A stretch of 61,558 bases of DNA, counting the filler, from Porpidia crustulata (lineage: Eukaryota), in assembly GCA_964255105.1 (NCBI GenBank). It is 6 parts of 6 records of this genome, joined end to end, with 100 filler letters (N's around TTAATTAATTAA, not from the genome) between each part and the next. Parts side by side here need not be neighbours in the genome. Positions count along the whole stretch, not along the records: positions 20,579 to 30,763 come from CAXUWE010000819.1; 5 more parts are not named here. The stretch is one strand, 5' to 3'. The translations under genes and the position numbers were made by a program. Numbering within the stretch: position 1 is the stretch's first letter; each line of letters opens with the position of its first letter. Of this stretch, positions 10,193 to 55,450 are shown piece by piece. The notes under the pieces were generated by a model. It saw only the letters and a list, made by a program, of their open reading frames with translations. It made no database searches and was not told where the DNA came from.

Positions 10193-10292
10193 NNNNNNNN
10201 NNNNNNNNNNNNNNNNNNNNNNNNNNNNNNNNNNNNTTAATTAATTAANNNNNNNNNNNNNNNNNNNNNNNNNNNNNNNNNNNNNNNNNNNN
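10193..10292. other. Artificial contig spacer (44 N + TTAATTAATTAA + 44 N)
   Basis: Identical 100-nt linker with stop codons in all six frames, occurring five times in the window. Confidence 0.98.
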
Positions 10293-20478: not shown

Positions 20479-20578
20479 NNNNNNNNNNNNNNNNNNNNNN
20501 NNNNNNNNNNNNNNNNNNNNNNTTAATTAATTAANNNNNNNNNNNNNNNNNNNNNNNNNNNNNNNNNNNNNNNNNNNN
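20479..20578. other. Artificial contig spacer
   Basis: 44 N + TTAATTAATTAA + 44 N. Confidence 0.98.
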
Positions 20579-20841
20579 GATTGTGAGCTGTTGACGCTGG
20601 GGATGAGGGATTCTTGGGGAATGAAGAAGCTGCTGATTCTACAGGTTCATGCGTCGTTAAAGCCGTTTTTCGTGTTGTTGTTTTTCGTTCTATGCTACTA
20701 CTACTACTCCTACTACCATTCAATTGTTGGCGGTTAATATATATAGTGGATTAGCAATGGATAGGTGCGATCGCATTTTGTCCAACATCAACATCTCTCT
20801 ATCAATGATGCTTTGGTGTGATTTGATGGGAATAAATCTTT

Positions 20842-22366
20842 CTACTCTTCATGTCGGTGCTTGGGCATCCGCGGAAACGACAACCATATACCCAGCAATA
20901 TGCACAAGAACGCCAGGATGACAGGCTGCAGCGTGGCGACGCCCTTCGCCGATACGATTGCTCCGACCATGAACGGCAATCTGTGTGAGTTAGCTCTAAG
21001 ATCAATGATCCAACGCAAATAGGAGCACCGCTTACAGAGCAGCTCCGCTTCCACCGAGCGCGGCGCTGAAGCCAATCGTGGCGACATGCAATCTCCGCGG
21101 CAGGATCCGCGTCACCAGGACCACCAACGACGGGAACAGCGGGCCCATGAAGAAGCCCACGAGTGCGATAGCGACGGCCGAGACGATGAACTGCGGGACG
21201 AGCCAGAACAGGAGCTCGGCGCCGATGGCGCAGAGGGTGTAGATGATGACGGCCAAACGTTCGCCGATTTTGGGAGTGACGAAGCCGAGGAAGATGCGGC
21301 CAGCGGTGATGCCGAGCCAAAATCCTGTTGCTGTGAGACCGGAGGGGAAGGGGTTGCCGTGGCGGACTTGGGTCATGAAGACGACGATGTAACCGCCGGT
21401 GGAGACTGCATGAGGTTAGCGAAGTTCCGAGGGAATCAGCAAGGCAGCTTGGACGGACCTTCAGCTCCCATGTACATGAGTACGAAAAAAGCTGCAACCC
21501 AGGTGGTCCGCTTCTTGAGAGCTTGCCTGGTCATGCCGTTCTCCTCGCTGTTGTCCGCTCGTGCGCCCTCCCGGTAGACTTTGCTGTTGTCTTCCCAAAA
21601 GGCCACGGTGGTGAGGACTAATTCCGTCACGAGCAGTCCAATCATGAGGTAAAAGAACTGCCACCAGTGCAATCCGTACTTTGTGACCATGGCCGTGGCA
21701 ATTGCCGGGCTGATTACCGCTCCAGCGCCATAACATCCGTGAAGAAGCCCGAGGATCTGATTTGAATGATCCAGGGATCCGACCCAAGCGTTCCAGGCTC
21801 CGTCAAGCAATCCGTTTCCAAATCCCGCAAACACTAGAAATGCGACAACAGCGGGATACGGAGGATGCACGGCAACGACGATAAATGCGAGAATCTTGCT
21901 GGTCGGGGACATTATGGCAATGCCTCGTCGGCCAAACCGCATATGCAGTCGGTCACTGACGAGTGCGGCAACAGCATAGCCCGCGAATGGCGCGAGAAAG
22001 ACAAGGGAAGCGACAGTATAGGAAAGATGGTAGTCGCTTTGTATCTGCATTTTTGTCAACTAAAGGCTCATACTGGATCGTTTCATGGGATCATGGGCAC
22101 ACATATGGTAACAGCGGCCCGTAAGAGGATTCATTCATGCCTAGATTGATGAATGCGAAAAAAATGACCGCGAGTCGCCTGGTGTTCCGGCGGGGTTCAT
22201 TCCATTTCTCAAGGACTTCGACCTCATTTTCCGGTTCTTGACCTTGGGTACCGGAAAGTGCATGGCCCTTTTCGGTATTGTTTTGTATGGATGATTGATC
22301 TTTGGGAGAGCTCGAGAGAGGAGGTTCAGTTAAGGGTAGCTCAACGGCGCTCGTTTGGTGCGACAT
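20842..22366 (-). CDS. Major facilitator superfamily transporter (BSC6/TsgA-like), 4 exons
   Basis: LGMNESSYGPLLPY; motif-A-like SDRLHMRFGRR; GFGNGLLDGAWNAW; GLLHGCYGAGAVISP; YMGAEVSTGG; GFWLGITAGR; GFFMGPLFP; LPFMVGA. About 12 hydrophobic segments; canonical introns. Confidence 0.9.
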
Positions 22367-22856
22367 GATGATATTCTCGTCTGAGAAGGAGAGGCGTCAA
22401 CTGATGTTGCGTGGGCGACGTAAGCTGGAAGGAAGGGGCAGATGGAGATAACATGCTAGATGTGCAAAGTGGAAACAAGACGTAATCTTCTAGATCGTTG
22501 AGGGTCGTGGAGGACGGCAGGAAGAGACTTTTAGGCGGGGTTTGGCAGGCATACGCAACGGATGCATCTGAGCATCGCCAGCTAGGAGGAGAATGAAGTT
22601 GGAGTTGATTGCGAGGGAGCGGTCGATGACGCCAAGCATCGCTTAACGAATGCGGTAAGGGCTCGGTTATGCAGGGGACGACAGCTCATCAGGATGAAGA
22701 AAAGGAAGAAGAAGAAATAGGGAATCCTTCGAGGTTCGGTTAGACTCCAATGAGCCTATCACAGATAAATACTCTTGGGTGTGCCCAGATCTAGCGGCGT
22801 AGATGGATAGATAGTCGAAGATCGATGAGACGGGTAGGATGCTAGTGAGATAGGTC

Positions 22857-24394
22857 ATGTCAGAATGCTGCAGGCACGGAGATGAAGATTCCAGTATTCT
22901 TCCTCCCTCCAAGCGAGCTCACGTGTACCGCGGGACGAGCCTTGCGGGGTGAGGTATGTCCTAAGACTTGTAATTCAGAAGACAGCTTAAGCCTAGGGAA
23001 CTAAGTGTGCACAGAAATACTTCGGTTACACACAGGGCAGATGCTTTGACTGCGGAACACTAGTACAGGTACGCAGTACATGGCGTGATCCCGTGAGAAG
23101 ATTGACATTGGAACTATACCAGGCTTAATGTTGGTGGTGGAGGCGGAACGAGGAAGTGGGGTTGAGGGCGGAATTAGCGCTAGAGACAGAGTTCGTGGAG
23201 TCGCTTCCGCTAGACGGACGACGGAACACGGGCACACGGGATGACGGGAAATTATTAGCCGACGTTCCCGAGACAGAAACCTTAATCCCCGAGGAAACGT
23301 CTTCTCGAGGAGTCAACTACTGCAGTAGCAAAGCGTCCTTCATCAACTACTCACTCATGGCTTGTTCGATATCTGCATACACATGCCTGGGCATCCTTCG
23401 CGACATTCACGCCATCATCAATTCCATGCGCGTATGACTCATGACAATGATAGTTCTCGCTTCGACCACCGCGTACTGCCTGTCCATCCCAACGGCTCAT
23501 CTCGCCCTCCTCCAGCATCTAGTATGTATGGATCTGTCGAAGGGGAAAGACGGCTCGCAATCACGTCAGTATGTGGAAACAAGATCGGCACACTCGACAA
23601 GTGTTGGGGCTCGTACAGCCGCATGGGCTCAACAGAAGGATAAACTTTCTTGGACGGAATCCTGCCCTGCTAGATCTTTGTCGTCTTCAGTTTGTCACAG
23701 CTGGCATACTCCAACGGACGAAGAAGATCGTCCGGTCTCAGTTACACATTTTTAGTGGGGGTGATAGTTCAAAATTTGGCAAGTATTATCAGCTTTCTCG
23801 TGTAATTCAGTGGCATGTTCCGTTTCAAGGCTCTGTTTTGATGTTTTCTGGCTGTATGAAATACTCGTAAGGAGAAGATAGCGTCCTGGAATATGAAATA
23901 CGGCATCTACTTGTCTTCCAGTCGATCTTTCCTTCGTGAGCGGCGATCGAGGTGCACATCACCCGCCCCCAGCTACTCAGCTTTTAGCTTTCTTAGCACC
24001 GAAGATGGTGATGCAAACGCCGTAGTGTTGGCGTGGAAGGATCTAACTTTCCATCCGATGGCTCCTCGTGTTTGCAGATCTTGCATGAAATCTCTTGGCA
24101 TTCGACAGATGCATACGAGGCTGTTGCCATATCTGTTTGGCCCCAAGAACTAGAAAGAACTCGTATATTGTTACGATACGTACTAGGCGTTCCGGCTGCT
24201 ACGAAGATTGTGTAGAGCAATGTGATGGGCAATACCTGAGAATTCCAAAGTGGGACCGAGGATTGGATGCAAATGTCCCTGTCAGTTTTCAAGCAGAAGC
24301 CACCAGCACCGCTTCACCAGAATATGAGCAGTCACCTCACAGATTGAGAGATGATTACGTCTGTTTGTTGAGAAATTTTCCGTTTGTCAAATAA
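22857..24394 (+). pseudogene. Probable decayed Zn(II)2Cys6 fungal transcription factor
   Basis: PPSKRAHVYRG/xEPCGVR, intron GTATGT, then TKCAQKYFGYTQGR. This looks like a mutated RxxxACxxCRxRKxKCxxxxPxCxxC cluster with Cys codons changed and frameshifts. Downstream 1.4 kb holds broken ORF fragments only. Confidence 0.38.
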
Positions 24395-24734
24395 GATGTT
24401 TATAATCGCTTTGTAACGATATGTCAATAAGCAATACATGAAACAAGCAATGCAACCCTGGCGTTTCTGTCGAATCGCTCGAACTTTGAACTCGGCGACG
24501 ACTCCTATATCCGACCCTCGGACGATACAAGTGTGCATCGAGAGCCTGTCCACGTTTTCAATAATTTACCGCTATTGACGGACTTGTCCTCAGCTGTGGG
24601 CTAAGTAAGATATGAGTAGCAATATAAATATGCATTCAGAGCCCCATAGCAAAGACATTAGGTGAACATCTCACATTATTTACTATATACTTTTACGTCA
24701 AGACTTGAATAAGAAGGAATAACGGTCTAAAGAC

Positions 24735-27700
24735 ATGCCTGTTTCCGAGGAGCAGTATTATGGTACCGCCAGGGAAGATTGGCTCCAACTTAAGCGATGG
24801 AACCAAGATGTTCCCGAAGAATACCACGCATGTGTTCATTACATATTTGAAAACCAAGTCGAACTTCGCCCAGAAGCACCAGCTGTCTGCGCTTGGGACG
24901 GTTGCCTCTCCTATGATAAGCTCGACCAATTATCAGCTAGACTGGGAAGTTATCTCGCGACTTTGGGAGTACGAAACGGGGTCTACGTGCCATTCTGTTT
25001 CGAGAAGTCGCTTTGGGCTGTGGTCGCTACCGCTGCCATCTTGAAAGCAGGTGGTGCTTATGTACCGCTTGATCCGTCACATCCAAGTGACCGTCTTCTG
25101 GGTATCCTTGAGGATGTAGGAGCGAAGATAGTTTTGACGTCCAGCCTGCACGCGGAATTGTTATCTGGATCGACGGCACAGATTGTACCAGTATCATCAG
25201 AATTCCTAGACAGTCTCCAAGATAGGCCTATGCCGGAAGCATTCCATCATCACTCTAGTCCTACCGACCCAGTTGTTGTCCTTTTTACCTCTGGAAGTAC
25301 CGGTCGGCCAAAAGGTGTAGTCTTACAACATGCAGCGATAGCGACGCATGCAAGATCGCATGGTGAAGCTCTGCTGATGAATCAGGATTCCCGGGTCTTG
25401 CAGTTTGCGGCACATGTGTGGGATATTGCAACAATGGATATATGGACAACATTGATGCATGGCGGGTGTGTTTGTATACCTTCGGAACAAGAACGCCGTA
25501 GTGATATTGCTGGAGCAATGGAGCGGATGCAGGTAAATTGGGCGCTACTTACCCCATCGTTCGTTGTGGACCTTCTTCAACCGGACGATGTTCCAGGACT
25601 GAAGGTGCTAGTATTGGCTGGGGAGCCAATGAAGCAAGAAATTATTTCGAAGTGGAGCGAGAAAGTCCGCTTACTCAATACATACGGCCCTGCTGAGAGT
25701 GGATTATGCACAGCCATTGAATATGGATCGAAAGAAAGCAAGGCCGAAAATATTGGAAAGCGTATGCCCGCGAGTCTCTGTTGGATTACTGACGTTGATG
25801 ACCATGAAAAGCTTGTCCCCATTGGTTCAGTTGGTGAGCTTCTCGTGGAGGGACCCCCTTTGGCGCTTGGGTATCTGGGCGATGAAAATAAGACCAAGAT
25901 GAGTTTCATCGAAAACCCGAAATTCCTTCAGAGCAACCGTTCTACACGACAGCGGAGACTCTACAAGACCGGCGATCTCGCACAATATTGCCTCGATGGG
26001 TCTTTGAATTTCAAAGGACGCCGCGACAACCAGGTTAAAATCCGAGGTCAACGAGTGGAGCTCAGCGAGATAGAAAGTCACGTGGAAATCTACAGCGGAG
26101 TTTCAAGGGCTATAGTCTGCTATCCTAGAAGTGGGCCATTCAAGGACCAACTCGTGTCTATTGTGCAAACCTCGAGCATTGTCCTCGAAACTATGGCGGA
26201 GTTGAAAGTCCGCCCAACAAACCAGGAATTGGGAGGAAGTTCAACTTTGACTTTGCAAAGCCAGCTCTTGCAGTGGCTAAGCGACCGACTACCGGTCCAT
26301 ATGGTTCCCAACATTGTCATTTTAATTGAAGCATTACCTCTGACATTGTCTGCGAAGATCGACAGGAAAAGAATCGAGGATTGGCTACTTTCCATGTCCC
26401 CCGAAGAAGTGAACGCTTGCTGCCACAACGTTCGAGATTCCATCTCAAAGGAGCCTCTGTTCCAGAGTGAAGAAACCGCGCTCAAATTAAGCCTCAAGAT
26501 TGCCGGTATTGTTGATGAGAAGCGTGTAGGATTTGGAAAGGCACTCTTGGGCCATGATTTCATTTTACTTGATCTTGGTATTGACTCGATACAGTACATC
26601 AAGCTATTGACGTTTGTCAAGCTCATATGGGGGACCAGTATACCTCTGGCCATGTTGACCGGATCAAGGACGACCGTGCGATTGCTAGCGCAATTTATCG
26701 ACTCCGCTGGAAGCCGCGATAAGGTCAAGATACAACAGGTTTCAGCGGCCGCTTTGCTAACAGAAGTTGCTACCTTTGTCAAGCAACTAACACCGAGCAT
26801 TAATCCTTTGGCACCGTGTAACTGTACCAACTGTCACCGTGATTTCTCTACAGTCTTACTCACTGGGACCACCGGCTTTCTCGGAACGCAGATACTATGG
26901 CATCTGCTCTTACAATCAACGGTGAAGCGAGTTATCGCCCATGTGCGCGCGGAGAATGCACATATCGGCCTTGAACGGATTATTGACATAGCCAGAAAAT
27001 CCGGATGGTGGCAAGAGAAGTATGTGGAGAGAATAGAAATCTGGGTCGGTGACCTGGCGGTAGAGCCGCACCTGGGCTTATCTGCGGAGCAGTGGGATCG
27101 GATTCGAGGCTTTGGAGAGAATCCAATTGATGCCATCATCCACAATGGTGCCAGAGTGCATTGGATGCAAGACTATGATACTCTCAAGCCTACGAATGTC
27201 AATTCTACTGTGCACTTACTTCGAGCAAGCCTCGAATCCAGTTCGCTATCTAGATTTATCTATGTCTCTGGAGGACAGCAACTTCGACTTCTTGAGCAGA
27301 ATGACCAAGAGCGTGCCGAGGAAGCGATCAAGTTCAATGGATACGCTCAAACCAAGCTCGTCTCGGAACTTCTGGTCCGGGAAGCTGGGCGGCTTGACAG
27401 TGTGGTTAGAGAAAGACCGAGCCGTTTCCAGGTGGTCAAGCCTGGCTATATCATTGGAACAACTGAGAAAGGCATCGCTAACCCAGACGACTTCTTATGG
27501 CGATTAGCAGCAGGAGTAATTGAAGTGAAGGGATACAATCTAGCCGATCAAAAATCCTTCCTCTTCATATCGAGCGTTGATCGAGTTGCCAATATCATCG
27601 CCAATAGCTGCTTATCCGCAAACGATATGGGATCAGACAGCAACAAGATTAGCGTTTTCGATGGACTGACCATGGAAGAATTTTGGGATGTTGTCCGACG

Positions 27701-27959
27701 CTGCTGTTTCAATCTGCAACCTATGGAGGAAGCTGCATGGCTTGGATGTCTCAGAGAGATTACGATGCGCACGGGAGAAAAACATCCACTATACCCCTGC
27801 TTACACATGATGGAGACGGAGAAGATGAGGATTGCATCGCCGAGCCATCCAGTCAATCTAGTATCGGCTGAGAGAAAAGCCCAGATCAAGGCCGCCATCT
27901 GGAGCAATGTCAAATACCTCGTGGACACGGGATTCTTTTCCCAGATAGCGTTGGTCTAG
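24735..27959 (+). CDS. NRPS-like A-T-R enzyme (adenylation, thiolation, terminal thioester reductase), 1074 aa, intronless
   Basis: A-domain cores LKAGGAYVPLDP, FTSGSTGRPKG, NTYGPAE, GELLVEGP.LALGY, YKTGDL, GRRDNQVKIRGQRVEL and PLTLSAKIDRK; PCP motif LGIDS; R domain LTGTTGFLG, IIHNGA and GYAQTKLVSE. No C domain. Confidence 0.95.
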   Translation: MPVSEEQYYGTAREDWLQLKRWNQDVPEEYHACVHYIFENQVELRPEAPAVCAWDGCLSYDKLDQLSARLGSYLATLGVRNGVYVPFCFEKSLWAVVATAAILKAGGAYVPLDPSHPSDRLLGILEDVGAKIVLTSSLHAELLSGSTAQIVPVSSEFLDSLQDRPMPEAFHHHSSPTDPVVVLFTSGSTGRPKGVVLQHAAIATHARSHGEALLMNQDSRVLQFAAHVWDIATMDIWTTLMHGGCVCIPSEQERRSDIAGAMERMQVNWALLTPSFVVDLLQPDDVPGLKVLVLAGEPMKQEIISKWSEKVRLLNTYGPAESGLCTAIEYGSKESKAENIGKRMPASLCWITDVDDHEKLVPIGSVGELLVEGPPLALGYLGDENKTKMSFIENPKFLQSNRSTRQRRLYKTGDLAQYCLDGSLNFKGRRDNQVKIRGQRVELSEIESHVEIYSGVSRAIVCYPRSGPFKDQLVSIVQTSSIVLETMAELKVRPTNQELGGSSTLTLQSQLLQWLSDRLPVHMVPNIVILIEALPLTLSAKIDRKRIEDWLLSMSPEEVNACCHNVRDSISKEPLFQSEETALKLSLKIAGIVDEKRVGFGKALLGHDFILLDLGIDSIQYIKLLTFVKLIWGTSIPLAMLTGSRTTVRLLAQFIDSAGSRDKVKIQQVSAAALLTEVATFVKQLTPSINPLAPCNCTNCHRDFSTVLLTGTTGFLGTQILWHLLLQSTVKRVIAHVRAENAHIGLERIIDIARKSGWWQEKYVERIEIWVGDLAVEPHLGLSAEQWDRIRGFGENPIDAIIHNGARVHWMQDYDTLKPTNVNSTVHLLRASLESSSLSRFIYVSGGQQLRLLEQNDQERAEEAIKFNGYAQTKLVSELLVREAGRLDSVVRERPSRFQVVKPGYIIGTTEKGIANPDDFLWRLAAGVIEVKGYNLADQKSFLFISSVDRVANIIANSCLSANDMGSDSNKISVFDGLTMEEFWDVVRRCCFNLQPMEEAAWLGCLREITMRTGEKHPLYPCLHMMETEKMRIASPSHPVNLVSAERKAQIKAAIWSNVKYLVDTGFFSQIALV

Positions 27960-28724
27960 GGATCTCTAGGATTCGTTAGTACGCCACTCACAGTCGACGC
28001 CGTCTTATGAAGATTAAAAATTTCATCCCGTCTTGTTCTCCTTACTTCTCATTTCTTTCAAGTAAGAGGCTACGCTAGCGTATAGATTACAATATTGAAT
28101 ATAAAAAACAAGTCTATATAATACGATACAGCAATATCAAGAGGAAGTACCTCGCTTAGAGTAGCGCTGCTGCCGTGTACCGCCCGGATCGGAAAGTTAG
28201 ATTCTCTAACGCGTCGGGTCGCACCACTAGTGATACTATTTCGATGATCTGAAGATTCCCTCGTGACGATCCTTCGCGTGGACATTGGACAGATGTGTGC
28301 CGCTCCAGATGCCAAGAGGGGTTACTCCACCTCGAAACGGGTTGTTTCCAAGATACGATGATCGTACTCGGCAGCGATGGTGTACCTTGCTGGAAACTAT
28401 GCCAAAACCCCTGGTCAATGCAATGCAGCCAAAGAACAGGCCGTGTCCGTTGAAGATGACGTGATCGTTCTGTACCTTTTGCGCTGCGCCATGGGCTCCA
28501 CTGGCAGAACGATGGTGTGAAGATGTTGAGCCGGACAAACCAAAGAATAGTCCACGTGCCCCTTTTCAAGCCAGCTGGGTTGTCCATAAAAGGAGCTCGA
28601 GATGAATCGTACTTGACCCGTATAACTGCTTTGAATATCAAAAAGGCACGCCCAAGAAAGTATCAGACAATTCGATTGACACAGTCGTTGCACATTTGAC
28701 CTCTCAATCCAAATATAAGCAACG

Positions 28725-30492
28725 ATGGGATCTTTATCAGACACGCCTACGGTCAACCTACTCGAGTATCTACGCTCAAAGTCTCGGCTCGATGTTGATA
28801 GTCTTGACATCAAGGGTAACATTCGAGGCGTCGAACCATGAAACTCAATACTGACCTCTATAGTGTCGACCACCAGGGCTCCCTTTGTCGACTGTACTTC
28901 AAATCAGGTGGGCCTATTCCAGATCCAAACTGCACAATGTACAGCCGAATAACCCAACTTGTATAGGCTGAAGGCTATACAGAGCTCCTCAACCCTGAGC
29001 GAGCATCTCTACTCAATCGATCCCTGGTTCTCGCACGTAATATATTGCCTGAGTATCCCAATTTGACCTTTGAAGAGCTGGCATTTGAGATATCTGTATG
29101 TTTCTCCTTTTGACCATCAGACTAGAACCATCTACTTATCCACCCTGCAGATGGTCAACTTGGCCTTGACCATAGCTCCAAACATCTCAGGCTCCATCCT
29201 GGTGATGACGAACCCTCGATACGCCGGTAGCGTCATCAAAACTGTCGAAAACGCTCAACGCAAGTTCCTCTTTTCTCAGGACTTGGTGAAGGTGAAGTCA
29301 GCAGCAGCTAATAAAACAATAGGTTTCGTCGATTTTTGCCACATCCTCGACCCTGGTTTTGACAAATCAAGGCTCTGCCTCAAGGTCCCTGCGACATGGG
29401 AAGGGCTGCAAGCCTGCCGAAAGCTGACCGGCCGAGGCATCAAAACCGCGGCGACCACGCTCTTCACAAAGGAGCAGGCAATTCTCGCCGCTGAAGCGGG
29501 ATGCGAGTGTATTATTCCCTTTATACATGAACTCAAGGTTCTTTTTGACAAGAAGTACGTTTATAATCTACCATTTATGCCTTTCACCCACCTTCCACAA
29601 GCTCATTTCACAAAACTTCTTCACGCTCTCTCCATCATCTACCTCCATATTGTCTTCATCTTCTACCTCCACGTTTCTCCATCATCCACACACCCATCAT
29701 ACACACCAACACCAGTAAAGTCAACACTAAAACACCCCCCCAGCTTCCACGGCGCCCCCCCAATCTTCAACCTCTGCCTCCACGCCCAGCAATACTTCGC
29801 CCACCACGCCTACCCCACCCACGTCAAAGCCGCTGCCCTCCTCACCGTTGATGACGCCATCCGTCTCTCCGGCATCACTGCAGTGACGCTGGAACCCCAC
29901 TTACTCGAAGCCCTCGCCGCAGCCCACGAGCCCGAAGCGGCACTAGCTCAGCGTTCCATTTTCAGCAGCTCCGTCAATGATAAAAGTAATGGAGATGGCT
30001 GGGAGGAAAAAGTCAGTTATATCGACAATGAGGCGGGGTTCCGAGCGGCTATGCGCAGGGGGCATGGCGATAGGCAGACGGTTCAGGTTAGTTTTTATTT
30101 AATTTTTCGCTTTCATCCAACTATTCTTCCTCTTCGCCTCCTGTACAACCGGTTGGATGTAACATGGCACTAACCATCACCAGGCCCTCAACATCTTCAG
30201 CGACTTCCAAGCAAAAGCCGAAGCCATGATGCGCGACGCCGATCAACTCTCCCTCTTCCCCGGCGCAGCACCCCTCAAGCCCGTAGACACCAAAAAAATC
30301 GATTTCTCCCGCAACGACCACCAGTCCCCGAACCAGCCCAGCCAGCCGCCTGTCTTGGTGCCTGAGTCACCAGTCGAAAACGGCACGGTGGAGAATAAGG
30401 CGAAAGAGAATGGTGGGTTGGCGGAAGTCTCGCCAGAGATGAATGGGACCGGAATTCATGGGCAAGCGTCGGGCTCGTCAATCGTTGTTTGA
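28725..30492 (+). CDS. Divergent transaldolase/FSA-family (class I aldolase) protein, ~7 exons
   Basis: MGSLSDTPTVNLLEYLRSKSRLDVDSLD|...FVDCTSNQ|...; Schiff-base motif LCLKVPATWEGLQACRKL; TTLFTKEQAILAAEAGC; C-terminal helix ALNIFSDFQAKAE. Introns include 29260-29322 (GC-AG) and 29555-29743. Confidence 0.88.
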
Positions 30493-30763
30493 TATAAACA
30501 TGCTAGATCTAAGTTCCACAAATATTTTGCCTGGGGGCTCGATAATTCCCATAGACTTTCCGCGCCAAGGAAAAATCGGGGGCTCGCGCATGGCTCACTG
30601 TCCGAATCATCAATACAAATCATTCTTTTCCCACTTATTTTATTTGATTGTGAAATTTGATCTTTTCATCGGTTCTATTAAACTCCCTTCTCATCCACCC
30701 TTCTCATCCACCCTTACCATCCATCCTTACCATCCCCCTTCTCATCCCCCCCACCTTCTTTAC

Positions 30764-30863
30764 NNNNNNNNNNNNNNNNNNNNNNNNNNNNNNNNNNNNN
30801 NNNNNNNTTAATTAATTAANNNNNNNNNNNNNNNNNNNNNNNNNNNNNNNNNNNNNNNNNNNN
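30764..30863. other. Artificial contig spacer
   Basis: 44 N + TTAATTAATTAA + 44 N. Confidence 0.98.
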
Positions 30864-41033: not shown

Positions 41034-41133
41034 NNNNNNNNNNNNNNNNNNNNNNNNNNNNNNNNNNNNNNNNNNNNTTAATTAATTAANNNNNNNNNNN
41101 NNNNNNNNNNNNNNNNNNNNNNNNNNNNNNNNN
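41034..41133. other. Artificial contig spacer
   Basis: 44 N + TTAATTAATTAA + 44 N. Confidence 0.98.
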
Positions 41134-43465
41134 CCCTCAACCCTCTCCCCACCCCCCGGCTGATCCAATCACTAATTGCCATATTCGTCACCATCGGATT
41201 CACCCCGCTCGCGCTCGGAAACACGCTCGCGTCCGCAACATACAAGCCCTCGGTGCCCCATACCTGACCCGTCGGATCAACCACGCTGTTCCGCTCCTTC
41301 GCGCCCATCCGACAAGTGCCCATCTGGTGCGCGCTGCCGTACATCGTGTCCGGTGCGTTGGCGCCTTTCTTCCGCAGCAGGTCGAGCCAGGCTTGAAAGC
41401 GGGCGTCGTTGACGCCTTGGCCTGCGTCAGCGACAGCGGTAGCGTCGTCGCGCGCGAAGATGGGGATGCCCGCGGTGGTGACGATGATTTCCGCGGCGCC
41501 GGCGACGTAAAGGATCTTGGCGGCGGCGATGACGCCCTCGAGCGCGTGGCGGGCGTCGAAGGCGCTAGGGGTGTAGGCCATGCGCAGGCGGCCGTCGACG
41601 GGGTCGGGGTAAACACGGCCACTGTCGCGGTCGCGGACAAGGGAGATGTAGCCAGTCATGTGGTTGGTGCGGGAGCAGAGCAGTTTGTAGTCAAGGCCGG
41701 AATTCCAGCGCATAAAGGGAAGGATCCAGCCGGGGATCATGGTCATGGCTTCGATCTTGGTGCCGTGGCCGTGGCCGTCGAGGTTTTGGAACTCATCGCA
41801 GACGGCGGTGAGGATGCCTCCTTCCCAGGGGCGGGTTTCTTGAGGGAAGGTTGCCGCGATGAGGGCAACTGGTTGGGCTAGGTTAATGAAGGGGGAAGGT
41901 ATGGATGCTGGAGCGTAAACGTACCGGGATGTAGGTGGAGGTTCCGGCCTATTTGAGGGTTTTGGATGCCGCTTCGGAGGAGGAGCAAAGGGCTTTGGAG
42001 GGTTCCGGCAGAGACAATGACGCGTTTGGCTTTGATGACGACTTGACGAGTAGTTTTGTCTGTGCCATCCACACCACCATGGCTATCTCTTGATGTCCAA
42101 GTACCTTTCACACCTACTGCCACTTTCTTTCCCTTGATAATGTCGAAGATCACCTTGTCTGCCTGGAAGCCTTCGATGAACTTGGCTCCAGCTCTTTCGG
42201 CGTCTGGTAGGAAAGAAACGACCGGGCCTTGCTTTTCAGCGGTACCGCAGCCAAGGGTACAATAGCCACAATAATGTTTCTTTCCGGCCGTATTTTGAGG
42301 GACCGCTTTGACACTGAAACCGAGTTTCCTGGCTCCTTCAAGAAGAACTTCATTGGTCGGATTATGTTCTATGTGAGCTGCTGAGACTCCCATGCGATGG
42401 CATATACGATCAAGTGAATTTTGGAACTCAGACGAAGTGAAAAAAGGTAGTCCGCCATCCGCCCACTCTTTCCGTACAAAAGCTTGAGTCTGTAACGAAG
42501 CAGACCAGTTGACGGTTCCGCCACCACCCCAAGCCTGACCTGCCAGTACGGCGATACTACTATCGTCCGAAACATCAACCCCTCCATTCATGTACAGATG
42601 AATGTCGGCATCAGCTTTTGACATTGGTAGATGTTCTGGAGGATAATGGTATGCCTTCTCTACCACAATGACTCGATGGCCTGATTCCACGGCAAGATTC
42701 GTCGCGCACACACCAGCACCACATCCACTACCCACGATGACTACGTCAGTTTCGATCACAGCAGGTTCTGCCCCGGGCGGGAACTGCATAAAGCCATAGT
42801 CAAACCCTTTACCAGGTTTTCCATGTACTGGTGCTCGGGGGAATCCAATTACAGGACTGAGAACAGCACTCTTTTTCGTCCAGGTTGAGGTCATCATGGC
42901 CTGCAAGGCTCTGGCACTTTGATTGAGGGGCGGTAGGTACGATTTCTCCCAACTATGCAAAATCTGTTGGCGGATTTGCACAGGTTGAAGGTGGAAAGAG
43001 GTCGTGTAGCCGGTAGTCAAAAGACATCCAGCCCGAGTACTAAGATAACTTTAGGCTTGATGCTTATGCGATATTAACTGCTGCTGGCGCTCACTCTAAG
43101 GCAGATAGAATAACTCTTATTCCTTTCAACGCGTCCTGCCTCACATATTCTCCAAGCTGCCTGTGTAGCGTCTCTTTAAACCCTGGGGTAGAGCTTGCAT
43201 TTTCTTGGAGGTACTGATGAGGGATATCATCAGCGGCGTCTGCAGGTAACGTTTCCTTGATTTTGGCTATCGCTGTAGTATATTCAGAGGCCGAGACAGA
43301 GAGATTGTTGCTGGATGGGGTTGAGGATACGACAAGGGAGGGGATTATGGTGTCTGCGATTGCCATTAAAGTAGCCCATTGTGAGGCCGTAAGGACATCT
43401 CCCTCGGGCGGTGGAGGTAGAGGACTGTCAAGTGGCGCGAGCAGGTTCAATTCGGTGCTGGTCAT
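41134..43465 (-). CDS. Long-chain fatty alcohol oxidase (GMC oxidoreductase, FAO-type); last codons lost in the gap
   Basis: DVVIVGSGCGAG, GGGGTVNWSA, HYCGYCTLGC, GRNLHLHP, SAHQMGTCRM and VADASVFPSASGVNPM; three exons. Confidence 0.93.
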
Positions 43466-44246
43466 CGTGAGGAGATTCCGCAGCTGTTGCCACTCCTGTC
43501 CTTTGCGGTCTGTATTAGAATTTCTACGAAGACTGAAGCCCCAATGAAGCTATGGCGAAGGCGGGGCGACATGATGTTCTGGACTGACAGATCGACCGGC
43601 GTCCTCAGTGGCCTGCACCGTCCAGGCACGCAGACCTCGGCTGTGTGGCACTGAGGGGCCGCTTTCTTGTTACGTACCTAGATGGATACGTTAACGCTAA
43701 AGCACTCAAGGCGGGAGACGCTGTGAACAGTCTGCCATGTCGCAGCAGACCTAAGAAGCTGTAGGGTATTCATCTTATCAAAAGATCGCGAGGAAAGGTG
43801 CACACCGAAATAACAGATCTCTGCTCCACTGGTATGCTGCCATCATAGGGATTGGTGTGCCATCGCTGTCGAAGAATAGGTGTCTCGTACCGATATCAAG
43901 CGCTGATCCGTATTAGGTCTTATGGTTTGGGTGAGCTGATTGGTTCGCTGTGGGCGAGCCGATTGGTCCGCGTTACTCAATGGCTCGGTCCGATCGTGGA
44001 GGTCAGCTCAGCCTCGTTGCGCACGCACAATATGACGATGAGCATAGGTAGGGTGGTAGGTTGGTAGGTCATCTCACGGAAGGCATTACGCCTTTCAACT
44101 ATGGATATATATAAGGTCATTTGCTATCTAATTTGCGGTTCTAACCTGCTATTTGAAAGTTTACGGTTTTTTCTACAGACCAGCGTTGATCATGGTAATT
44201 CATTCTGCGCTCTGATTTTCAAAAGTCTTCCTCTCGTTATCGCATA

Positions 44247-51302: not shown

Positions 51303-51402
51303 NNNNNNNNNNNNNNNNNNNNNNNNNNNNNNNNNNNNNNNNNNNNTTAATTAATTAANNNNNNNNNNNNNNNNNNNNNNNNNNNNNNNNNNNNNNNNNN
51401 NN
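51303..51402. other. Artificial contig spacer
   Basis: 44 N + TTAATTAATTAA + 44 N. Confidence 0.98.
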
Positions 51403-51799
51403 GGTGGGGCGCGGGAGTGATGTTGGATGGAAGCTGGTATTATGTTAGATTTTGAGACGAGCAAGGAGTCAAGTTCTGCGGGCTCCGCCGATCAGATGGA
51501 GACTTGTGTGAATAATGTTTCCCGCGTTAGAAACATGCACCATGATAGAATCGTCGTGAGGCAGAACGAATCATCTGGTAGGTACAAAATCATGTTCGAA
51601 AACTCTCAACGCCACAGCACGTTTGAAGAAACCCCATCGATCACGACCTCGTTGGAAGCCGTTCACCTTCGCAGAATCGTCACGATTTCAAGATTCAGAT
51701 CGAAAACCTCGCTCCCGTTGACGATTTCCCTTCCAATCATCTGATGAATCTACCATTGCAATGGTCCGCATTTTCCGCAAAAGAAAAACCAAAACTCCA

Positions 51800-53200
51800 T
51801 CAAGCCAACGCCAGTTCCATCACCGTATCCGCACTCCCGACCGGCGTCCTCATCCCCATCATCTTCAGCGGCGGATCCACGAGCTCGAACAGCGCGGTCC
51901 AGTCCTCCAGCGTGCGCTCCTGGCTCCCAAACTGCACCATCATCTGCATGTCGAGCGCGTGCATGATCTTTTCCGTGCGGTTGGGCAACGTCCCCGCCGG
52001 CGCCAGGATCTGCTCCGCCACGAGGATGCGTGCGCCTTTCTTCATGGTCCCGCTGAGCCGGCGCAAGATGCGGAGGCAATCCTGCTGGGGCCAATCGTGC
52101 AGGATGTGGCGAAGGAGATAGACGTCGGCGTGGGCGGTGGAAACCGGCTGGGGGTCGAAGAAGCTGTGGGGGGTGAATCGCACACGAGCTTGGAGCTCGA
52201 CGGGGATGGCCTTGTGAGCGGGCACTTCTAGGTTTGCGGAATCTTGGATGATCACGTGGAGGGATGGGAATTTTTTCGCTATTATCGTGGCGACGAAGCC
52301 ATCAGCTCCACCGATCTGAGGGATGAATTTAGCACCGGGGTTTGTACGGGGACCTGCTTGGCAGTTGCGAAGATGGATCGACTCACATCAATGAGGGTGG
52401 CACAGCCCAACTCGGCCCAGTCGTACCCGTTTATAACGTGACGAACATCGTGCGCGCCTCCGCTTATTATCAAAGCCATGTACCTACCGTAAATTTGAGT
52501 CCACGTTGGGAATTTTTCGGCATAGCTCCACCACGTATCGGATGTCGAATGAGCAATTTGAAACGGTGACCTGCGCTGTGCAGAATCATGATCTTGGAAT
52601 TCCTTGAGTGACTCAAGAAGCTTGATGGTTGACGGTAAACAGATCTCCAATTGATAGCTCAGCAACGGCGAAAGCGATGGAAGTAACTTGGAGGCTTCGG
52701 TATGCGCAATGAAGCCCAGCTCGGGTTCACGGAACACATTGTAAGTCATTGCTTGGCGGAGGACTCTGACTAAGATATCCGCTGGAAGTTTAGAGGCTTG
52801 GGTGAGATCGTGCAGGGAAAGCTGTCCTTCTGTAGGGATCATCTCAGCAATGCGATAATGATTGATGATCTGGAGGGTAACGAGGTTATGCTTATCCTAC
52901 ATGTTTCTTAGTATAGTTTCAGTAGGCCTCCAAACTTATGCATCATACAATCAAGACCATGTTCTTCAGCATCTCAGAAGGCCCGGCCACCACATTCAGC
53001 AGCGTTGTACATTGGTCAATGATATCCAGGCGTGCCTTCCGAACTCTTTCATCAGCAGATGCATCGGCTTCAATGGCTATTTGGTCTCCAGATGGTAAGC
53101 CATCAATGCCTAAAGACTGCTCGAGGATGTAGGCGGTGTTTGCTATCTGTCCTGCCAGTCTACCGATCGTCGGATTTTCGAAAGAGAGCATGGCAGTCAT
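51800..53200 (-). CDS. SAM-dependent O-methyltransferase (Methyltransf_2, secondary-metabolism type), 3 exons
   Basis: RVLRQAMTYNVFREPE.G.IAHT dimerisation region; SAM motif LID|IGGADG split by an intron; HSFFDPQP; catalytic YLLRHILHDW; QERTLEDW. Confidence 0.92.
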
Positions 53201-53794
53201 CTTGTGTATTAATATTTCGAGTTGATAATTATAGGAAGGTTCTTAAGAGTTGGGTACTAGAGTAACGGGGCAGTCTGATTTTTAATAGAAAAGCACTTAG
53301 TGAGACTCGTGAGAAAATTGTAACTGTTCTGGCAGCTTTGCACCACGACGTAGTCTTTCCCCTATATGTCACAGCGGTCACAAGTAGCGCATCAGCAGTG
53401 TACTCAATGTGCTCCCGATCTTTATAATTTGCCAATATCTCATGGCTTCTCCGAGAAAGACTATGACGGCAAAAGGTAATAAATTTACTCGAAAGAGAAA
53501 CGTTCTTCAGTATTCGATATTCTGTTTCCGAGGTGAAATGTAGTTTCGACCAGGCGCATTAGCCGAAAGAGGAAGCCATGGAGTTCCCCTTGCGTCAGGG
53601 ATGCTACAAATCATCAATCGGGGCCCCAACTTAAGCCTGTTCTGTAACTTATGTTGTGCTCCGAACCCGATATAGGCCATCGGAAACGCAGGAGCCTTTT
53701 GATACCACTTTGTTATCATGTAGCTTCAACGTCATTGTACAGTTCTGACTGTGGTTTGGATATTCTTTACCTGTAAAAGCCATTATTCTCTATC

Positions 53795-55450
53795 ATGATC
53801 CGTTGTTTTGAAAGTATGGAAATCGCTTCACTGGTTTTATCACTCGATATGTTAGGAATACTTTGTGCCATTGTGGCGGGCATCTCTGTGCTAATTTATG
53901 TCGTGATTGGACCGGTCATCAAGTATTTTCACGACCCCAAAGGCCTGAGAAGATACCAAAATCTAGATCTACTCGCAGGCATCACCAACCTGTCTTTTAT
54001 GATCGAAGCTCATAAGGGGTTTCGCTCGAAAAGACTTCTTGAATTGCACAGTAAAGGTAGCCCAGTCATTCGTATTGGTCCGAACTCGCTTTCCTATGGA
54101 GTAGTTGGTGCTATCAAGGTATGGTATTGCAGTATACTAGATCACTATATGTGTCCTTTGTCTTTATGCTGACCATTGGAACCATAGAATATTTATGGTC
54201 ATAGTACCTCACTTACCAAGAGTGGTGAGTACAACGCTGCCGCAGGCACACACTTCCATCTTGCAGACGTGGTCGATAAGAAAGATCACGCTCGTAAGCG
54301 TAAAGTCCTTTCATCAGCATTTGCCTCCAAAAATCTCGAAGAATGGGAATACAAAGTTGCCAGCAAAGTTGAACAACTTCAAGCTCAATTTGATAAACAT
54401 TGCAAGTTGACTCCAAACGAGCTGATCGACTATCGCATGTGGACAAATTACTTCACCATTGATACTCTCGTCGACATCAGTCTTAGTGAACAAACTTCCT
54501 GTCTCTACGATGGCAAGGATCGTGTGGTTGCCGAAAGTATAGATGGATCGACTTGGGAAGTTCCCTTCCGGGACTGCCTTTATGGTATCTTCCACGCACA
54601 GTCTGGCCTTGTCTGGGCCTATGACTGGTTTAAGACTCTTGTAACCGTCACCAACTTGGTCAGCCCACAGTACAATCGTCTTTGGAAATGTAGTAAGGGT
54701 TGGGGCGGTATCGTGAATCATCTGGCCCGCAAAAGATGGGACCGATATAAGAAGGGCGAGAAGGTGGACGATCTGTTTCAGTCTTTGATGGAAGGAAAAG
54801 ATGGTGACCCACACAACCTAGAATGGGGTGAGATAGTCGCCGAAATTGGGCTTATGATTTCCGGTTCATCCTCCGTATCGAACGCCATTGCCAACACCAT
54901 GTTCCAGCTGCTTAAAACCCCGGACTGCATGCAGAAGCTTCAACAAGAAGTTGACATGGTTTTGGACGTAAATGATATCGTTGCGCCTTACGACAAAGCC
55001 AAGCACCTCCCATACCTTCGAGCATGTTTAGATGAGAGCTTGCGGATGTATCCGCCAATTTCGCACGGTCTACCCAGAGAGACCCCTCCTGGGGGAGCCC
55101 AGATATTGGGAGAATGGATTCCAGGCAAAACTACGGTTCCGATCAGTGCTTTTGTTGCACACAGAGATCCAAGCGTTTACCTTGAACCAGAGGTCTTTAA
55201 TCCAAGCCGTTGGCTCGGTGACGAAGGCAAACAGCTTCAACCGTTTTTTATCGCTTTCTCTGCTGGAGCCAGGGGCTGTATCGGGCCCCCCATTACTTAT
55301 CTCCAGCAAGTCACACTGTTAGCTAGCCTGGTGCACCGTTATAACTTTGAGCTGGTCTCTTCCGAATGGAAACCAGACAGACGAGAGACAATGAACTTAA
55401 TTCTCGGACCAGTGCCAGTCAAGATTAAAAGAAGGAAACCGACCGAGTAA
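53795..55450 (+). CDS. Cytochrome P450 (benzoate-4-monooxygenase/CYP53-clan-like), 2 exons
   Basis: N-terminal TM anchor, VIRIGPNSLS, HARKRKVLS, ExxR (ESLR), PSRW and heme motif FSAGARGCIG; intron ~54119-54187. The exact start ATG is uncertain. Confidence 0.93.

Follow-up and report, generated by a model that had tools for sequence, protein, structure and literature searches.

A transaldolase-fold enzyme with a remodelled active site in Porpidia crustulata belongs to a fungal clade often encoded beside NRPS-like A-T-R reductases

The pair Glu96/Phe178 versus Gln/Tyr is the standard rule that separates transaldolases from FSA aldolases. In the Fub8/Fub7 system of fusaric acid, an aldehyde passes to a carbon-carbon bond-forming enzyme, Fub7 being PLP-dependent. 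According to the accessible part of PMC13259622, FSA chemistry runs via the Gln59-Thr109-Tyr131 water, and FSA variants without Arg134 and Ser166 accept N-Cbz-aminoaldehydes; the accessible part of PMC8097096 describes a wider donor scope for FSA L107A/L163A. Reductase-terminated NRPS-like enzymes are described as releasing aldehydes (PMC9605436, accessible part), and in the LnaA and HqlA piperazine pathways this aldehyde serves a later step (PMC9605436 and PMC8403587, accessible parts). The locus described here resembles these pathways in its reductase-terminated NRPS-like enzyme and differs from LnaA, HqlA and Fub8/Fub7 in its transaldolase-fold partner, which is reported for none of them in the literature searched.

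We analysed a stretch of 61,558 nucleotides, filler included, from Porpidia crustulata (GCA_964255105.1), hereafter the window. The window consists of separate contigs joined by spacers, so adjacency across the spacers is no evidence of neighbourhood, and the P450, O-methyltransferase, GMC oxidase and other genes beyond them were rejected as cluster members. The features of the locus are as follows.

10193-10292, 20479-20578, 30764-30863, 41034-41133 and 51303-51402: N-run/TTAATTAATTAA/N-run spacers, at about 10-kb intervals
20579..30763, no strand: contig of 10,185 nt with three genes (MFS, A-T-R, transaldolase-fold), bounded by N-run/TTAATTAATTAA spacers
20806..22366, minus strand: MFS transporter, divergent from the A-T-R gene, PF07690 on two exons, ATG at 22366, ends approximate
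24735..27959, plus strand: single-module NRPS-like A-T-R reductase, 1074 aa, one exon, PF00501 and PF07993, TIGR01733 and TIGR01746 above cut-off
28725..30492, plus strand: transaldolase-fold gene, 7 exons, 418 aa plus stop, CDS of 1257 nt, open spliced frame
28725-28815, 28864-28907, 28967-29095, 29151-29259, 29323-29554, 29744-30086 and 30184-30492, plus strand: exons 1-7 of this gene
29260..29322, plus strand: its intron 4 (GC-AG), 63 nt, stop-free in frame

Eleven short frames flanking or separating the three genes yielded no further gene, only the second MFS exon. The public gene models P0002 and P0307 sit on a contig of 10185 nt, and one public contig, which may be the source sample, matches the window over 21218-29527 with zero differences and without joints. 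On another contig of the window, an O-methyltransferase gene (PF00891, minus strand) lies beside a cytochrome P450 gene (plus strand) at 51421-55450; the two may mark the border of another cluster. A GMC oxidoreductase gene, which we take to be of the long-chain alcohol oxidase type, lies at 41078-43549 on the minus strand.

Five introns of the transaldolase-fold gene are GT-AG and intron 4 is GC-AG; the three homologous loci compared (L001, L006 and L014) have a GT donor at the intron 4 site, and the exon borders of L014 coincide with those of the window gene. All motifs named in the original prediction are in frame in the seven-exon CDS. The public model P0002 reads through exons 4-6 without splicing, and its predicted structure was set aside, as the retained introns are of low confidence and the N-terminus is missing. 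The closest full-length relative is P0003 of Endocarpon pusillum, with 55% identity over 340 aa. The C-terminal region of about 80 residues (30244-30492) is rich in Pro, Ser, Asn and Glu and does not align with relatives.

The neighbouring A-T-R protein has A, T and R domains and no C domain; its T domain is identified by the carrier Ser motif here and by PF00550 on close relatives. It has an Asp235-type amino-acid pocket, and the NAD(P)H and YxxxK motifs of the R domain are present, this R domain being the only reductase of the window cluster. The pocket residues of the A domain are DIMLVATLC, and the pocket varies among linked clusters, with no substrate call; the amine-binding Asp is kept in all 12 linked A domains. 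Relatedness between the window MFS and the MFS of the homologous locus L001 was not detectable, and the other L001 neighbour proteins (DHBP synthase, 2OG oxygenases, sulfotransferases), searched against the window, gave no match.

The window protein matches PF00923 with 84.5 bits (cut-off 27; E 1e-23), and ESM Atlas matches were confined to clusters named transaldolase. A TIM barrel with the Schiff-base Lys on strand 4 and the Asp/Asn pair was found, the residues by alignment and the fold through the relative P0003, whose predicted structure (pLDDT 95.6) matches TalB/TAL2 with Z 39-40 and rmsd 2.3-3.1 A over 304-315 residues, in agreement with Foldseek, and FSA with Z only about 20. The window protein, 55% identical to P0003, is accordingly taken to have the TalB fold. 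Among the features of classical transaldolases, Phe178 is found (88 of 88 members of the clade described below), and Glu96 and the phosphate site are absent; against the TIGR00874 cut-off of 396, P0003 scored 116, the unspliced P0002 71 and the control P0216 402. The FSA triad Gln59/Thr109/Tyr131 is replaced by Met/Thr/Phe. At the C1-pocket positions of FSA (Leu107, Ala129) the window protein has Ala and Ile and the clade Leu and mostly Ser, with Lys at the adjacent position 223. In its mode of action the enzyme would come closest to FSA and engineered TalB, but it lacks defining residues of both, so that its sequence places it in the TAL/FSA superfamily and no further.

Residue equivalences were taken from HMMER alignments to solved TalB chains, with numbering counted on the 3KOF chain (itself Tyr178/Glu181); they rest on sequence profiles and on the fold match of a relative. 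The positions in the window are listed below with their state in the clade.

28797..28799, plus strand: Asp25, equivalent to TalB Asp17, kept (85/88 clade rows, 3 gaps)
28902..28904, plus strand: Asn44, equivalent to TalB Asn35, kept (85/88 clade rows, 3 gaps)
29205..29207, plus strand: Met107, at TalB Glu96 and FSA Gln59 (Met in the clade, Gln in 55/55 other fungal paralogs)
29382..29384, plus strand: Lys145, equivalent to the TalB Schiff-base Lys132 (87/88 clade rows)
29448..29456, plus strand: Ala167 at Asn154, and Thr169, equivalent to Thr156, kept (Leu at 154 in the other 87 clade rows)
29514..29531, plus strand: Ile189 (Ser176), Phe191 (Phe178), His193 (Gly180) and Glu194 (Arg181), by alignment
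29826..29843, plus strand: Lys230 (Met223), Ala233 (Ser226) and Leu235 (Arg228), by alignment

The original prediction had described a kept Schiff-base Lys and N-terminal Asp/Asn, a change of Glu96 to Met and of Arg181 to Glu beside a kept Phe178, and the loss of Ser226 and Arg228 and with them of the phosphate site. The alignments to TalB chains bear this out: Lys132, Asp17 and Asn35 are matched, Met stands at 96, the Glu181 of 3KOF itself aligns with Glu here, and the phosphate site reads Glu181, Ala226 and Leu228. The protein also has, as proposed, neither the Glu/Phe signature of transaldolases nor the Gln/Tyr signature of FSA, its pair being Met96/Phe178. The TalB Thr33 equivalent is kept as well. 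Two further changes, Met223 to Lys and Gly180 to His, had not been noticed. Position 223 (codon 29826-29828) lies in the donor pocket, on the barrel strand 229-233 of the P0003 predicted structure, and presumably corresponds to FSA Leu163, by motif spacing. This second active-site lysine is a clade marker, found in 2/55 of the related Q/Y paralogs and 0/4 true transaldolases. Ala154 and Ile176, also overlooked until now, are unique to the window protein among the 88 clade members (at 176, Ser in 82 and Ala in 5).

Compared with E. coli TalB (PDB 1ONR, 1UCW) and yeast NQM1/TAL2 (3CQ0), the protein is alike in full-length fold and in Asp17, Asn35, Lys132, Thr156 and Phe178; it differs in overall identity (about 25%), in Glu96 to Met, Asn154 to Leu/Ala, Arg181 to Glu and Met223 to Lys, and in the loss of Ser226/Arg228. 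It shares with E. coli FSA (PDB 1L6W) an apolar residue at the Leu107 position, and differs from it in the absence of Gln59/Tyr131, in the Lys at what would be the Leu163 position and in the long TalB-type chain. The loss of the Arg134/Ser166 equivalents parallels the FSA variants made for aminoaldehydes (PMC13259622, accessible part). The engineered TalB F178Y/R181E (PDB 3KOF) likewise has Glu at 181, but has Tyr178 and keeps Glu96, Ser226, Arg228 and Met223; R181E is, as the original prediction stated, an engineered TalB change, one that improves affinity for non-phosphorylated glyceraldehyde (PMC3962226, accessible part).

To place these changes in the family, homologue sets of 68 proteins, the best 120 of 274 and the best 150 of 4075 were gathered. 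Nearly full-length sequences numbered 162 among 304 proteins plus the query; leaving out 21 that were gappy, mis-spliced or close duplicates and adding 6 for the linkage test gave 147. The tree of these 147, rooted on 4 true transaldolases, contained 55 Q/Y paralogs and 88 M/K rows. The M/K rows, defined by Met96 and Lys223, form a single clade (88/88, support 1.0, no other row inside) nested among the Q/Y paralogs; this monophyly and Phe178 (88/88) are independent of the definition. The Q/Y paralogs have Gln96 and Tyr178 in 55/55 and Leu154 in 51/55, so that by their aligned residues they carry an FSA-like signature on a TalB-length chain, and they are probably aldolases for non-phosphorylated substrates. 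Such paralogs (e.g. P0064; loci L003-L050) are annotated as transaldolase and lack the phosphate arginines.

The Q96/L154/Y178/N180 paralogs, the parent family, share with the clade the SNQ motif, Leu154, a frequent Glu181 (70/88 clade rows, 35/55 Q/Y rows) and the loss of Arg228 (54/55 Q/Y paralogs). Unlike the clade, they keep the Gln/Tyr pair and mostly Ser226, with Lys223 in 2/55 and A-T-R neighbours in 0/10. The loss of the phosphate site was thus early, and a later branch dropped the Gln/Tyr pair and fixed a lysine. Lys132, Thr156, Asp17, Asn35, Phe178 and Lys223 are almost invariant over the 88 sequences, at roughly 40-60% identity. The window protein lies inside the clade as sister to E. 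pusillum P0232 (support 0.76), with a long terminal branch (0.565); this branch and the two unique pocket changes could reflect relaxed selection. Judged from these alignments, the substitutions are not specific to the window locus, and R181E and the loss of Arg228 derive from the wide family of fungal paralogs.

The named clade members among the matches listed are all ascomycetes and carry the annotation transaldolase, aldolase or hypothetical protein. Penicillium fimorum and Talaromyces proteolyticus each carry two divergent clade paralogs two genes apart (P0036/P0238 and P0033/P0234). P0074 (AFT91372.1, Aspergillus rugulosus) and P0285 (AN9443, A. nidulans) have Ser at 181, and AFT91372.1 and AN9443 presumably border the echinocandin cluster or its remnant. 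We found no characterised clade member or cluster in the literature searched, mostly non-subscription articles without supplements, in which a mention in a cluster table could be missed. The accessible parts of PMC7203126, PMC8140973, PMC8403587 and PMC7230286 hold nothing on the clade, and a term search of PMC8788816 returned nothing on it. An ortholog group 'NRRL3_04473_like', named without function in the accessible part of PMC6231085, may correspond to the M/K clade, judging from its taxon range.

We then compared locus tags, accessions and contigs of clade members and A-T-R proteins (the best 120 of 907 A-T-R matches). Thirteen genomes, each with a listed clade member and a listed single-module A-T-R, were testable; CDD83, with a condensation-domain NRPS only, was left out. 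A clade member lies within 3 genes of an A-T-R in 9/13 of them among the matches listed, a count that covers a minority of the clade members and hardly any from Aspergillus and Penicillium. The linked pairs are:

Endocarpon pusillum: GJ744_006874/006875
Hymenoscyphus fraxineus: HYFRA_00002207/6
Seirophora villosa: LQ345_002804/3
Gyalolechia ehrenbergii: LQ343_004428/9
cf. Caloplaca: Q9219_006930/1
Wetmoreana brouardii: Q9181_000571/568
Lepraria neglecta: KAK3172570/573
Toensbergia leucococca: MMC12_007056/053
Aspergillus carbonarius: OOF98065/066

In the other 4/13 genomes (Q9166, Q9174, Q9202 and Q9220) the genes are apart, among the best 120 of 907 A-T-R matches. The linked genomes, which we take to represent about five lineages in three fungal classes, are not independent: four are Teloschistales, and Lepraria and Toensbergia are 89-92% identical. 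The crude chance of 9/13 linkage would be about 1e-20 if the genomes were independent, which they are not. A correlation of pairwise identities between aldolase and A-T-R (rho 0.55, 36 non-independent pairs) was not taken as co-evolution.

Of 80 metagenome loci, the first 51 are fungal paralogs, and 5 of these belong to the clade (L001, L002, L006, L014 and L051). The A-T-R gene is present in all three long clade loci, L001, L002 and L006 (L001 and L002 about 97% identical), and in none of the 10 Q/Y loci with at least 5.5 kb on both sides, several of them redundant. The link to A-T-R is conserved, in 9/13 testable genomes and 3/3 long metagenome loci. The order in L001/L002 is 2OG oxygenase, sulfotransferase, arylsulfotransferase, DHBP synthase, aldolase, MFS, 2OG oxygenase and A-T-R. 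In L006, a distant A-T-R is head to head with the enzyme gene, and an aldo-keto reductase lies behind. Since its A domain is only 23-25% identical to the other linked A domains, the L006 pair hints at selection for the aldolase/A-T-R pairing. Locus L014, too short at 1.3 kb, was left out of the linkage test. L051:3264-3766 holds a clade copy with an in-frame stop, probably a pseudogene, and no A-T-R in 3.2 kb upstream.

Tailoring genes near clade members include 2OG oxygenases, sulfotransferases, an aldo-keto reductase, MFS and an NAD(P)H-binding protein; fused gene models set MFS or an NAD(P)H-binding protein beside two other clade members. A DHBP synthase gene (ribB/RIB3 family, TIGR00506 above cut-off; L001:7881-8564, minus strand, same in L002) is head to head with the clade gene and, in this one lineage, may supply a methyl-ketone donor or be a housekeeping copy. 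In five Q/Y loci, a Pfam scan of 53/94 listed frames found mostly housekeeping genes; one of these paralog loci, L041, has a transketolase gene and a short-chain dehydrogenase (SDR) gene nearby.

The substitutions track the A-T-R linkage in part: Met96, Phe178 and Lys223 do, and R181E and the loss of Arg228, which belong to the wider paralog family, do not. The original prediction had also read Glu181 as a fit to a cationic amino-aldehyde from the A-T-R. Glu181 occurs in 35/55 Q/Y paralogs, whose long loci carry an A-T-R in 0/10, and is absent from 18/88 clade members. As Glu181 is older than the linkage and variable within the clade, it gives no pointer to a cationic substrate, and this part of the proposal is not supported.

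The best explanation of the fold, residues, clade and linkage described above is, with moderate confidence, that the enzyme is a biosynthetic Schiff-base aldolase which joins a ketol donor to the aldehyde released by the A-T-R, Lys223 replacing the acid/base or binding the donor; the aldol chemistry, the role of Lys223, the donor, the acceptor and the product are what we infer from it. The transaldolase-fold enzyme and the A-T-R together probably build a nitrogen-containing natural product. In a small secondary-metabolite cluster made up of MFS, A-T-R and aldolase genes, the aldolase would form the carbon-carbon bond as partner of the A-T-R. The A-T-R would activate an alpha-amino acid and release its aldehyde; a small ketol donor, bound as a Schiff base on Lys132 and held by Asp17, Asn35 and Thr156, would be added to this non-phosphorylated aldehyde, and the free amine could cyclise with the ketone, yielding a hydroxylated imine ring of the pyrroline type. 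The imine may be reduced or oxidised in other cluster types, and the MFS would export the product. Residues for holding a ketol donor are retained in the enzyme, whereas those for a distal phosphate are missing. Because both Glu96 and Tyr178 are absent, the invariant Lys223 is the likeliest substitute acid/base, or else it may bind an anionic group of the donor; no precedent was found for proton transfer with neither Glu96 nor Tyr178.

Linkage shows a common pathway but no order of steps, and the enzyme could serve the A-T-R pathway through another Schiff-base step: making or cleaving a sugar-derived precursor, retro-aldol cleavage, dehydration, a step of Amadori or Mannich type further along the pathway, or disposal of a reactive aldehyde. 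A different reaction may be why both acid/base residues were lost and a second Lys was gained, the DHBP synthase stands head to head with the enzyme in L001 and L002, and the two clade paralogs kept two genes apart in two fungi would be unneeded for one aldol step. However, the A-T-R is the sole source of a second substrate in the minimal window cluster, and the enzyme retains the donor-binding Asp17, Asn35, Lys132 and Thr156 of aldolases; we regard such a step as rather unlikely, though a serious candidate.

We consider it improbable that the enzyme serves catabolism or housekeeping, as an aldolase acting on non-phosphorylated sugars or sugar acids, and owes its adjacency to the A-T-R to inherited synteny, because the link spans three fungal classes in which gene order and spacing vary, holds with an unrelated A domain in L006 and is found in 0/10 long Q/Y loci. 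A similar role is nevertheless probable for the Q96/Y178 paralogs, the loss of the phosphate site is older than the clade, the five Q/Y loci hold mostly housekeeping genes, one with transketolase and short-chain dehydrogenase, and A. niger talB, assumed here to be a Q/Y paralog, is reported to be XlnR- and xylose-regulated (PMC8140973, accessible part). That the window copy or the whole clade is catalytically dead or decaying, a binding protein at most, seems very improbable: the seven-exon frame is intact, Lys132, Thr156, Asp17, Asn35, Phe178 and Lys223 are almost invariant over 88 sequences, and the Leu-to-Ala and Ser-to-Ile changes look like a size swap within one pocket. Such decay would agree with the absence of Glu96 and Tyr178, the terminal branch of 0.565, the unique Ala154/Ile176, the unaligned C-terminal tail and the in-frame stop in the metagenome copy L051.

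If the biosynthetic aldolase reading is extended, the clade may, as a tentative possibility, represent undescribed and widespread ascomycete pathways in which an NRPS-like reductase delivers an amino-aldehyde to an aldolase of a third catalytic design (Lys132 plus Lys223, no Glu96/Tyr178), with hydroxylated pyrrolidine or iminosugar-like alkaloids as products. Lys223 would then act on the C1 side of the donor, possibly switching the attacking carbon or admitting anionic or methyl-ketone donors, for example 3,4-dihydroxy-2-butanone 4-phosphate. These pathways, if real, would parallel in nature the engineered FSA route to iminocyclitols.

Databases label the clade proteins as plain transaldolases, and they are thus taken for primary metabolism. 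Yet this clade of at least 88 fungal proteins fits neither the transaldolase nor the FSA rule and has a new active-site lysine fixed, so that a third solution for proton transfer or donor binding becomes testable, and the three-gene cluster of the window offers a minimal case for heterologous expression. If the biosynthetic reading is true, these enzymes would be natural aldolases for non-phosphorylated amino-aldehydes, which have so far been built by mutation, and as carbon-carbon bond-forming partners of A-T-R reductases they would point to a cluster family as yet unexplored, spread over lichen fungi, Helotiales and Aspergillus.
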